Made by a program: the position numbers
From: a virus
Taxonomy: Duplodnaviria; Heunggongvirae; Uroviricota; Caudoviricetes
Length of the DNA stretch: 3,146 nucleotides
IMG/VR virus record: IMGVR_UViG_2671180417_000020
Strand: one strand, 5' to 3'
Shown here: positions 1 to 3,000 of the stretch, in pieces
Layout of the letters: every line of letters begins with the position of its first letter
Position numbering within the stretch: position 1 is the stretch's first letter

Positions 1-3000
1 CCGATTGACGAAAAGCTTATGGCGCTTCACAAGTGGTTTTGGGAACAAAGTGAAGCCGAGCGCGCCGCTGGCATTCGCATCAAAGGAGAGTGAGATGAAC
101 GGACAAATCTCAATTGTTCGACCGGGAGCATGTGACGATTGCGAGATACGAATGATTATTCGTCTGGCGAGGGGGAAAACAATAACTGCTCTCATTACTC
201 CAGAAAATCTCGCATTAGCATTAACCGGAAAGTCAGACCTGCCAGTAGAGCTAAAGCTGCGAAATGTTGAGATTAAGGTGAGTATCAGCAATGAATAACA
301 ATCCTCGCATTGGCGGGGATTTCTTTTATCTGAAAAGGACAGAATACATGATTAACAATATTGCAAATCAGTCTTCGTTTCCGGCTGCAACAATTGACAG
401 CCAGATGCTGTTGAAAATGGTTAATGAGGCGCGGAGACTGCGAGGCGAAAAAGAAGTACGCAACAACGACTTCATTGCACGCATCAAAGATGAGCTTGAG
501 GGGGAGGGTTACGAAATTTTCGTAACCCCCATGGATAAGAAAAAAGGCGGAGCGGATCAGGTGGTTATAGTGATGACCTACAAGCAAGCCCTGCGCGTCG
601 CCGCACGTGAGTCGAAAGCCGTCCGTCGTTCGCTGGTCGACAAACTTGAATCAATGCAACAGCAGTTGCAACAAAAAACGACCACGAAGAAATCACCGGA
701 TGGCCTTGAAGAATTCCGTAAGGCACGCGCATTGAAAATGACCGTCGACACAATGAAAGACCTCTTCGACTTCCTCCCTCACCTCGCACCGGAAGCTAAA
801 CAGGTCGTTGCCGCCAGCCTGATTAATCCCGTCGTCGGCTTTAGTGCAATCCCTCTTCCGGTCATTGATGAACATCACTACTCTGCGTCGGAGGTTGGCA
901 CCATGCTTGGCATTTCAGCCAACAAGGTAGGGCGCATTGCCAACACCTACATGCTCAAAACAGAAAAGTACGGGAAGTGGTTCATCGACAAATCGGCGCA
1001 CAGTGACAAGCAGGTCGAGACATTTCGCTACAACGAGGCGGGAGTGCACAAGATCGAGGAACTCATCGAAGGAGAACGAAAGGCTGCATGATTTTGACAA
1101 GATAGTTTTCCCCAAATCTGGGGGGAAAAGACCGAATGGCGCGGCTTACAGCAAGATAAAGACCACATGATTTGACAAATCCGCATTAACGGGGCTATAT
1201 TCCGCTTCATGGTGCTGAACACACCTTGCAAAGCGGAAACCGCACCCGTCAGTCATGCGGCTTTTTTATGTCCATTTCTCAGATATGGTCGGGTAGCGCG
1301 TATACCGAAAAACAACCGAAAGGTTAAGGATACGGGCCGACTTTGCACGGTGTTCAAGTACCTGACCGCCCTGCTGAACACAGGGCTATCTGAACAAATG
1401 CAAAGGACATAAAAATGACCAGTCAACTCATCCCCGTATTCAACGGCACTATCGCCAACGAAACAGCCCTACTCTGCAATGCCCGCGATCTGCATGCTTT
1501 TTTAGGCGTGAAAAAGGTGTTTGCGGCATGGATTACAAATCGCATTTCAGAATACGAATTCATTGAAAATCAAGACTATATTTTGCTTTCCAATTTGGGA
1601 AAGCAAACATCTGGTAGAGGCGGTCACAACCGCAAGGATTACCACCTCACCCTCGACACAGCCAAAGAACTGGCGATGGTGGAGCACAACGAAAAAGGCC
1701 GCCAGATACGCCGATACTTCATCGAGTGCGAAAAGAAACTTCGCCAGAGCCTTTTACCTGCACCAATGAACATCAACTACCCCCTCTCGTGGTTCTCAGA
1801 TAACCATCCCTACGCCACGATGAACTATGTTGATCGCAAGGTTATCAGCCTTGATGCTTCCGTGCTCTTCGATATGCCAAGCCCAACTATGCGCATCCTC
1901 AACGAGCTACACAGCAAGGGCTATAACGTCGACGCAGCTGTCGCTGAATTTAACGCCTTCAAACATCTGACGGAAGAAATGCGCCGCACGCTACAGGATA
2001 TTTCAAGACTGTCAGATCGAAATTCCCGAAAAGGCTTCTCGTTAAGTCTTTAAAGAACAGATCGTTTGACAATGCCTCCAAAGCTATCGCATACTGACCG
2101 CACTACAACGTCAGCGGTCAACCGCACCCGATAGCTTTGCGGCTTTTTTATGCCTGTTTACAGGTATCGCCATATCAATGGCGGGTCGAGAGAGCCTAAT
2201 ACAATACCCTTTCGGGAAATACGCTCCGCCGTCTGACGCGGTAGTTGAAGCCCGCCACCCCACTAAGGTGGCAGTCAATACTAAAACGTCAGGAGTCATA
2301 ATTATGGCTAATCAACTCATCCCCGTATTCAACGGCACTATCGCCAACGAAACCACTCTTCTCGTTAATGCTCGCGATTTACATACTTTTCTTGGGGTAG
2401 GTAAACGCTTTGCATCGTGGATTACAGAACGCATTGCTGAATATGGTTTCGTTGAAAATCAGGACTATATTTTGGTTTCCCTAAATCGGGAAACCAAAGG
2501 TCGAGGAGGCGATCGCCGTAGCAAAGACTATCACCTCACCCTCGATACAGCCAAAGAAACTGCGATGGTTGAACGTAACGAAAAAGGCCGCCAGATCCGC
2601 CGATACTTCATCGAGTGCGAAAAGAAACTTCGCAACATTCAGCCAGTACAAACTGAGCAGCAATTCACAGCCGAGGAAATCATCCTCCTTTGCTATATGC
2701 AGGTACAGATGGAGAATGCGCAGGACATCTGCAAACGTCTGTACCCGATATTGAAGGAACTTAACTCATCATACGCGAGTAAACTGTATGACATTGCGTT
2801 TGAAACCTTCTATGCGGTGACGAAAAACAGAGACGCATTGCTCAGGGAGGCAACACGAATTGACCAGACAAGCGCCATTTTCGAACGGGCAAGACCAATG
2901 TTAAAAAGCCTTCGGGCGAGACAATTCGAATTTTAATATCAAAGGAGCTTCGGCTCCTTTTTTTACAGGTGAAACTTAATGAAATTCAAAGTCACAGGTG

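Follow-up and report, generated by a model that had tools for sequence, protein, structure and literature searches.

Two inverted repeats in a 3,146-nucleotide (nt) stretch of viral DNA (Caudoviricetes; IMG/VR record IMGVR_UViG_2671180417_000020; hereafter the window, meaning the whole of this stretch) probably mark, each of them, the 5' end of the leader of a c4-like antisense-RNA module controlling an antirepressor gene, in a design known from P1 c4, P4 CI and Gifsy-1 IsrK. The window belongs to a lambdoid prophage of the Shiga-toxin type, of which it is the early-left region, and contains three antirepressor-like genes in tandem; at two of these a paralogous module is found, in which a sigma-70 promoter is followed by a leader with the inverted repeat, a U-tailed hairpin, an sRNA-Xcc1 element, a ribosome-binding site (RBS) and antA. 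The original prediction had read the repeats, centered on the predicted start sites of both promoters, either as operators for two different repressors or as RNA structure kept by compensatory change. A role of the repeats as protein operators is not supported, and their role in RNA is supported in a modified form: the conserved feature is the antisense target contained in the loop and the 3' arm of the repeat, together with an alternative pairing among GCGG, CCGC and GCGG segments. The module is an Xcc1-based variant of the known c4/IsrK design, and the combination itself was found undescribed in the literature searched; in particular, no description of an Xcc1/antirepressor module emerged when sRNA-Xcc1, c4-a1b1 and C4 antisense were looked for together with Shiga toxin or antirepressor, nor did this literature describe how tandem ant genes are silenced.

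In the mechanism that we propose, the promoter would start the RNA just 3' of the left arm of the repeat, at about 1208/1209 in the first module and 2102 in the second, and the first 16–30 nt of this RNA, consisting of the loop and the 3' arm of the repeat, would represent site 1. Site 1 is predicted to pair with site 2, situated in hairpin 2 of Xcc1 about 100 nt downstream, and site 3 would be a same-sense copy of site 1 placed on the Shine-Dalgarno sequence of antA. The Xcc1 RNA, presumably processed from the leader, appears to accumulate as a stable, Hfq-bound small RNA in lysogens of enterohemorrhagic Escherichia coli, where it would pair with site 3, blocking the translation of ant as c4 does, and additionally with site 1. 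By default, the invariant GCGG would pair with the CCGC opening the U-tailed hairpin and prevent termination; Xcc1 bound over site 1 and GCGG would free the CCGC, allowing the terminator to form in an attenuation similar to that of P4 CI, as suggested by folding. Alternatively, the terminated leader of 48–60 nt could act as a sponge for Xcc1, as IsrK does, so that this arm of the circuit could have either sign.

Three sites that change together

Leaders homologous to the modules of the window were gathered upstream of AntA genes in IMG/VR, and a pattern scan of viral contigs enlarged the collection to 121 modules, located before several gene families and having, in phages and bacteria together, 71 distinct boxes. 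In 22 close homologues a three-way covariation can be followed by eye. In type-B leaders, similar to that of promoter 2, the arms TGACCGC/GCGGTCA are constant and the loop is hypervariable, each loop variant being matched by an antisense segment in Xcc1 hairpin 2 and by a same-sense copy adjoining the Shine-Dalgarno sequence (two examples for sites 1, 2 and 3 are ACAAACAG, CTGTTTGT and ACAAACAGGAGG, and AATATAGG, CCTATATT and AATATAGGAGG), while in type-A leaders, similar to that of promoter 1, TGCAAAG is replaced by TCGAAAG at all three sites. The same layout occurs upstream of antA in Edwardsiella, Symbiopectobacterium, Simonsiella, Kingella, Eikenella and Competibacter. The comparison of 45-nt with 260-nt segments by RNAduplex was too noisy, the cognate pair being the best in only 21 of 102 cases, and for this reason an anchored k-mer test was adopted, in which the tested box consisted of the 7 nt ending at the first G of GCGG. 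An exact antisense copy of this box was found downstream for 61 of the 71 distinct boxes (1.1% of the non-cognate pairs), and an exact direct copy, abutting GGAG/AGGA, for 50 (1.5% of the non-cognate pairs); both copies were present together in 48/71 cases, compared with 0.06% of the non-cognate pairs.

In the first module of the window, site 1 (1211–1236; all of the module features lie on the + strand) joins a b-type box, exposed in the loop of the inner hairpin GGTG-CTGAACA-CACC (1211–1225), to the a-type box TTGCAAAG (1226–1238), which runs into the invariant GCGG (1233–1236) and includes the 3' arm of the repeat (1231–1238). The antisense boxes forming site 2, CTTTGCACGGTGTTCA (1341–1356), are within sRNA-Xcc1 element 1, and the same-sense copies of site 1 that constitute site 3, GCTGAACACAGGG and CTGAACAAATGCAAAGGA (1373–1407, with the direct copy next to the RBS at 1390–1407), extend over the Shine-Dalgarno sequence AAGGA of the antA gene at 1415–2053. 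In the second module, site 1, ACTACAACGTCAGCGG (2102–2117, or 2102–2120 with the whole 3' arm), corresponds to the predicted 5' end of the RNA and includes both the GCGG (2114–2117) and the 3' arm (2114–2120); site 2, CTGACGCGGTAGTT (2233–2246), is within sRNA-Xcc1 element 2, and site 3, ACTAAAACGTCAGGAG (2280–2295), contains the Shine-Dalgarno sequence GGAG of the antA gene at 2304–2936. The predicted duplexes between sites 1 and 2 have energies of –30.6 and –23.1 kcal/mol in modules 1 and 2, respectively, and those between sites 3 and 2 of –17.2 and –17.9 kcal/mol, against –10 to –16 kcal/mol for the cross-module duplexes; the two modules, having different boxes, are predicted not to cross-react.

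The compensatory change considered in the original prediction is seen in the inner hairpin. The stem GGTG/CACC of module 1 appears in homologues as GGAG/CTCC, GGCG/CGCC, GGGG/CCCC and AGCTG/CAGCT, and most modules have, further downstream, an antisense copy of its loop; judged from these compensatory changes, the inner hairpin is well supported as a real RNA hairpin. The 8-bp and 7-bp stems formed by the arms of the two repeats show little two-sided covariation.

The three-site logic of Xcc1 was also observed before genes other than antA in a group of modules (m100–m114, in contigs L238, L235 and others), and some of these genes, from the reading of their translations, look to be of the Bro-N/KilA-N type; the control module appears, from these sequences, to be portable between families of antirepressor-like genes. 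In another IMG/VR contig (L242, about 3330–3700), two type-B leaders (m111 and m112) are arranged back to back, the first of which has promoter, site 1, terminator and Xcc1 element and apparently no gene before the next promoter; it may be an orphan Xcc1 RNA gene.

A predicted switch at the U-tailed hairpin

Between the repeat and Xcc1 both modules contain the sequence ACCGCACCCG-N7-TGCGGCTTTTTTATG, which gives a 5-bp hairpin with an 11-nt loop followed by a U-run. These terminator-like elements, at 1240–1267 and 2122–2149, read CCGCA-N11-TGCGG and then C and T6, and the CCGC with which they open (1240–1243 and 2122–2125) can alternatively pair with the GCGG of the 3' arm of the repeat, to which it is also complementary and from which it is always separated by 3–4 nt. 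In a folding sample of 75 distinct leaders, RNAs beginning at the predicted +1 formed the GCGG:CCGC mini-hairpin in 65 cases and the terminator in 5. When site 1 and GCGG were blocked, mimicking the antisense RNA, the terminator formed in 75/75, and when the left arm was included in the RNA the mini-hairpin was found in 29 of the 75 leaders and the terminator in 41. In both modules of the window the pairing with site 2 reaches into GCGG. The layout of the leader is, on this folding, predicted to be that of an antisense-operated attenuator.

Several observations weigh against the proposed module or limit it. Both +1 positions are predicted from promoter geometry and the role proposed below for the left arm from folding. 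The U-tailed hairpin is weak (5 bp, an 11-nt loop, about –5 to –6 kcal/mol) and was not called by the terminator scan, which missed it because its loop exceeds 8 nt. Moreover, most of the 121 modules were gathered with a pattern requiring the terminator motif, whose conservation is therefore partly built into the sample; the motif is present also in eight modules for which the AntA protein was the only search criterion. When the leader is folded at full length, site 1 and site 2 pair in cis in the minimum-energy structure, and site 1 may consequently act mainly intramolecularly, with regulation in either direction. The abundance of the Xcc1 RNA (see below) implies that readthrough of the hairpin must be frequent. 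Finally, no match to the Rfam families C4 (RF01695), c4-a1b1 (RF03163) and isrK (RF01394) was found in the window at E ≤ 10, and the relation between Xcc1 and c4 is an equivalence of position and logic, short of homology. Site 1 may exert its effect in one of three ways, as a target for termination (as in P4), as a sponge (as IsrK) or as a cis mask of site 2, the last being suggested by the full-length folds.

The left arm and the alternative readings

Both repeats are perfect and were correctly described in the original prediction: TTCCGCTT (1200–1207) and AAGCGGAA (1231–1238) form the first, of 8 nt, which encloses the smaller repeat GGTG (1211–1214)/CACC (1222–1225) flanking CTGAACA, and TGACCGC (2095–2101) and GCGGTCA (2114–2120) form the second, of 7 nt. 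Their sequences had been considered different at the two promoters, which is true for the flanking positions of the arms and not for the CCGC/GCGG core, common to both. Repeats of this size are frequent in the window, in which the two rank 11th and 19th among 28 inverted pairs of at least 7 nt, and 7-mer inverted-repeat seeds number 30 against 8.3 ± 3.5 in dinucleotide shuffles. The case for their significance comes from their position, the chance that such a repeat starts in the 8-nt slot at a given promoter being about 0.01, and from the homologues.

In a consensus scan, promoter 1 (1172–1201) reads TTGACA-18-TATATT and promoter 2 (2066–2095) TTGACA-18-CATACT, and the left arms start, as already noticed in the original prediction, in the last bases of the –10 hexamers, which end at 1201 and 2095, respectively. 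The 5' arm of repeat 1 comprises the end of the –10 and the GC-rich discriminator, and that of repeat 2 the last –10 base and the discriminator. Across more than 90 homologous modules the –35 and –10 hexamers keep a constant register while the sequence of the spacer drifts, which supports a real promoter; variants of the –10 include CATGAT, TATGAT, CATACT, TATAGT, TATATT, TATACT and TAAGCT. The predicted +1 is a purine directly 3' of the left arm (A2102 in module 2; C1208/A1209 in module 1), and since the left arm is upstream of it, the stems joining the two arms would not form in the promoter's own transcript.

Alignment of the homologues, suggested in the original prediction as a way to distinguish covariation from conserved half-sites, showed that the arms have lost complementarity, an outcome named there as a refutation, in part of the family, in which the target in the loop and the 3' arm is kept. 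In particular, the left arm is absent in about 15–20 of 93 modules, is lost in many distant modules that retain all their other parts, and is degraded in one homologue (L002, TCCACCT), while the GCGG of the right arm is invariant across the modules of gamma- and betaproteobacteria and the spacing between the arms ranges from 12 to 27 nt. The changes in the arms are mainly one-sided, from C to T, with little two-sided covariation, and give, as far as the alignment goes, weak evidence for arm pairing.

An additional perfect repeat of 11 nt, missed in the original prediction, connects the promoter spacer (CAAAGCTATCG, 2079–2089, the 5' arm of an outer stem) to the loop and 3' arm of the U-tailed hairpin (2129–2139). 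The segment 2066–2150 folds at –30.1 kcal/mol (z score –5.1) and, with the left arm and the outer stem, hairpins of –30 to –35 kcal/mol are obtained, ending at the U-run (z scores –4.2 and –5.1). Furthermore, no other + strand terminator precedes the next module after the first and the second ant gene (ant1 and ant2), while the third, ant3, has a canonical one at 2939–2966. From these long hairpins and from the lack of another terminator after ant1 and ant2 an insulating role of the left arm can be proposed: in transcripts reading in from upstream it would mimic the antisense RNA by sequestering GCGG and, with the outer stem, would give a long hairpin to the U-run, by which, in the E. coli lineage only, each module would be insulated from the gene before it. 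Indeed, the outer stem is restricted to this lineage; as a general feature it was rejected, cognate pairing being elsewhere no better than non-cognate (median rank 0.33). A left arm missing in part of the modules and an outer stem confined to one lineage do not count among the defining parts of the module, and the left arm is dispensable.

The same observations bear on the alternative that survives best, which we nevertheless regard as unlikely, namely that the complementarity of the left arm is incidental, resulting from a discriminator that is GC-rich for promoter reasons, or from a copy of ACCGCAC, by chance matching GCGG. This explanation would fit the invariance of GCGG against a left arm that drifts (24 distinct arm pairs show about 9 non-pairing cells) and is no longer present in distant modules, the confinement of the outer stem to one lineage, and the double occurrence of ACCGCAC in module 2 (2097–2103 and 2121–2127), at both copies of which Simonsiella (L091) has AATCGCAC; it accounts poorly for the 6–8-bp arm kept by most enterobacterial variants, for hairpins so much more stable than shuffled sequences when the outer stem is present, and for the missing terminators of ant1 and ant2.

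It is considerably less probable that the repeat is a true 5' stem-loop of its own transcript, in which site 1 would serve as a kissing-loop target; on this reading the RNA would have to begin at the left arm or before it. Hairpins including the left arm are minimum-energy structures (z scores –3.1 and –2.5), and C4-type modules hold their a1 and b1 boxes in the loops of fully transcribed hairpins; moreover, the left-arm changes of the close homologues mostly preserve G.U pairs (GATCGC, GACTGC, GACCGT), although, C to T being the commonest mutation, this bias says little, and two-sided change is seen at a few of the outer positions (GACCGC/GCGGTC vs. GTCCGC/GCGGAT or AATCGC/GCGGTT). However, the left arm corresponds to –8 to –1 in a promoter with a hexamer register conserved family-wide, many modules have no such arm, and the first hairpin of the C4-type relative has its start at +1 and not within the –10.

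Least of all can the repeats be taken, as the original prediction had suggested by analogy with Arc and Mnt at P22 immI, for DNA operators at which two repressor proteins would occlude –10 and +1: the palindromes do overlap these elements at both promoters and differ in the flanking positions of their arms, but the sequence between and beside the arms covaries with two downstream RNA sites, which operators do not predict, the left half-site is often lost, with the right one unchanged throughout the gamma- and betaproteobacteria, the arm spacing is not fixed, and in the window, which is only 3.1 kb long, no repressor gene is recognizable, its small open reading frames (ORFs; 95–298 and 2979–3146) having no Pfam match. 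A LexA box considered at 2094–2114 was rejected by inspection, the spacing of CTG...CAG being wrong.

The proposed place of sRNA-Xcc1 among phage antisense RNAs, and its genomic setting

Both sRNA-Xcc1 elements of the window (RF02221) reach the gathering score of 53: element 1 (1287–1375) has 69.3 bits and element 2 (2180–2264) equals the threshold with 53.0 bits. Although C4, isrK and c4-a1b1 do not match the window, matches to them occur before antA orthologues of Yersinia, Chania, Erwinia, Izhakiella and Neisseria, and orthologous antA genes have either C4, preceded by isrK and c4-a1b1, or sRNA-Xcc1 at equal distance from the start codon. This equal placement indicates that Xcc1 holds the place of c4, and the repeat-bearing leader that of IsrK/a1b1.

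The expression of Xcc1 can be followed in published data sets. In the EDL933 strain the sRNA-Xcc1 locus, which is a type-B module upstream of an Ant gene, has 40,293 RNA-seq reads and a ribosome coverage of 0.02 (PMC5331693). In the Sakai strain, the Hfq peak EcOnc43, obtained by cross-linking and analysis of cDNA (CRAC), is listed at 1308356–1308404 on the minus strand (PMC4104026 supplement) and maps to the 3' half of Xcc1, including site 2, in the homologous module of prophage Sp5 upstream of the antirepressor ECs_1251. The short leader RNA has no entry among the listed Hfq-CRAC peaks of Sakai, which show here only EcOnc43, on Xcc1, and EcOnc31, upstream of the promoter. The latter (L140 1264–1340; Sakai 1308663–1308739, minus strand) is about 120 nt upstream of the –35 of the module, on the same strand, and overlies a strong hairpin, TTAACGCAA...TTGCGTTAA, near the prophage end, which suggests another small RNA or a terminator just upstream of the module. 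As for maturation, c4 and CI RNAs are processed by RNase P, and the closing stem of Xcc1, followed by ACCC/GCCC, may resemble a substrate of this enzyme.

Among the known systems, one of the closest is Gifsy-1 isrK, where the isrK promoter gives the short IsrK RNA, ending at an intrinsic terminator, and readthrough gives the C4-like stable RNA STnc1160 and the message of the antirepressor AnrP (PMC4825925); the authors of that study (Hershko-Shalev et al., 2016) describe IsrK as structurally homologous to P4 seqA. Like the order IsrK – STnc1160/orf45 – anrP, the modules of the window have a short promoter-proximal RNA, here with a predicted intrinsic-terminator-like end, followed by a structured small RNA complementary to the leader and then by an antirepressor gene. 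Unlike it, the downstream RNA is sRNA-Xcc1 instead of C4, the leader has no isrK or c4-a1b1 match in Rfam and is shorter (about 48–60 nt vs. 77), and the target box lies directly on the Shine-Dalgarno sequence of ant, with no upstream ORF similar to orf45.

The c4 antisense RNA of P1 and P7 immI, with sites a1,b1, a',b' and a2,b2, was reportedly described by Citron and Schuster in 1990. The Xcc1 modules share with it an upstream copy, antisense boxes in an RNA that is probably stable, a downstream copy at the RBS of the ant operon, two boxes per site and a specificity presumably set by the box sequence, as in the heteroimmunity of P1 and P7; they differ in belonging to another RNA family by covariance model, in having no icd gene, in the U-tailed hairpin interposed between site 1 and the antisense RNA, and in being located in a lambdoid prophage as two tandem modules predicted not to cross-react. 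With the CI RNA of P4 and the CB RNA of N15 (seqA – seqB – seqC), systems in which antisense pairing promotes premature termination, they have in common a leader complementary to RNA from the same transcript and a termination that, on folding, is predicted to hinge on leader pairing, which here, in contrast, would take place at an intrinsic-terminator-like hairpin with the GCGG/CCGC/GCGG switch. As to sRNA-Xcc1 itself, it is said to have been reported in Xanthomonas campestris by Chen and co-workers in 2011 as an integron-borne, trans-acting small RNA of which no target was known; both elements of the window reach the family threshold, and they differ from it in residing within 5' leaders, before genes of the antirepressor type, and in having cis-encoded targets that can be identified. 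Two other groups were compared and rejected: the AgvB/AsxR/EcOnc03 anti-sRNA family likewise consists of short RNAs whose 5' end varies and whose terminator is conserved, but lies downstream of PR' and has unrelated sequences, and the Pas small RNAs belong to the late region and are unrelated.

Taken beyond the window, the balance of the evidence leans slightly toward sRNA-Xcc1 being, next to c4 and equivalent to it, a second class of phage 'immunity' antisense RNA that is widespread, with hypervariable boxes at three sites (at least 71 types), antirepressor-type genes as targets (AntA and apparently others), an attenuator leader, tandem modules that do not cross-react and, in E. coli, a promoter embedded in the terminator hairpin of the preceding gene. 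The family, without a known target since 2011, would in this way gain a concrete function and concrete targets, as far as can be judged from sequence, and the module would account for EcOnc43, an Hfq-bound orphan small RNA of E. coli O157. If this is true, one prophage can carry two non-cross-reacting Xcc1 modules in tandem, and changes in a single box are predicted to create new specificities. Antirepressors can flip lambdoid prophages, including Shiga-toxin phages, into lytic growth, and the antirepressor of Phi24B promotes efficient induction (PMC3064807).

The genes controlled are, by their Pfam domains, of the antirepressor type: AntA is found in both ORFs 1415–2053 and 2304–2936 (1e-25 and 1.5e-27, respectively) and P22_AR_C additionally in the second. 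The window has about 95% identity to the early-left region of Shiga-toxin-converting lambdoid phages, where the order is eaa, three antirepressor genes, a regulator, a methyltransferase, xis and int, all on a single strand. In RefSeq and in the phage records the annotation of this region is limited to the ant coding sequences; RNA and regulatory features are missing from it, the two sRNA-Xcc1 elements among them. The first ant-like gene (349–1091), called 'anti-repressor' in related phages, has neither a Pfam match nor an Xcc1-type leader; a terminator-like hairpin at 300–321 precedes it and would fall inside a longer ORF call from 291, and within the gene, at 506–528, there is a perfect palindrome of 11 nt, GGGTTACGAAA/TTTCGTAACCC, with a 1-nt gap. 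Both AntA paralogues contain, in addition, a perfect hairpin of 10–12 bp (1582–1607 and 2470–2499) at the same codon position and with different arms (TTTGCTTTCC/GGAAAGCAAA vs. TTTTGGTTTCCC/GGGAAACCAAAG), and distant antA homologues (L002, L013, L081–L098; about nt 165–195) keep a hairpin of 8–12 bp with other arms again, such as TTTTCGCCA/TGGCGAAAA and GTTTTGCACA/TGTGCAAAAC, which looks like selection at the nucleic-acid level within the ORF.

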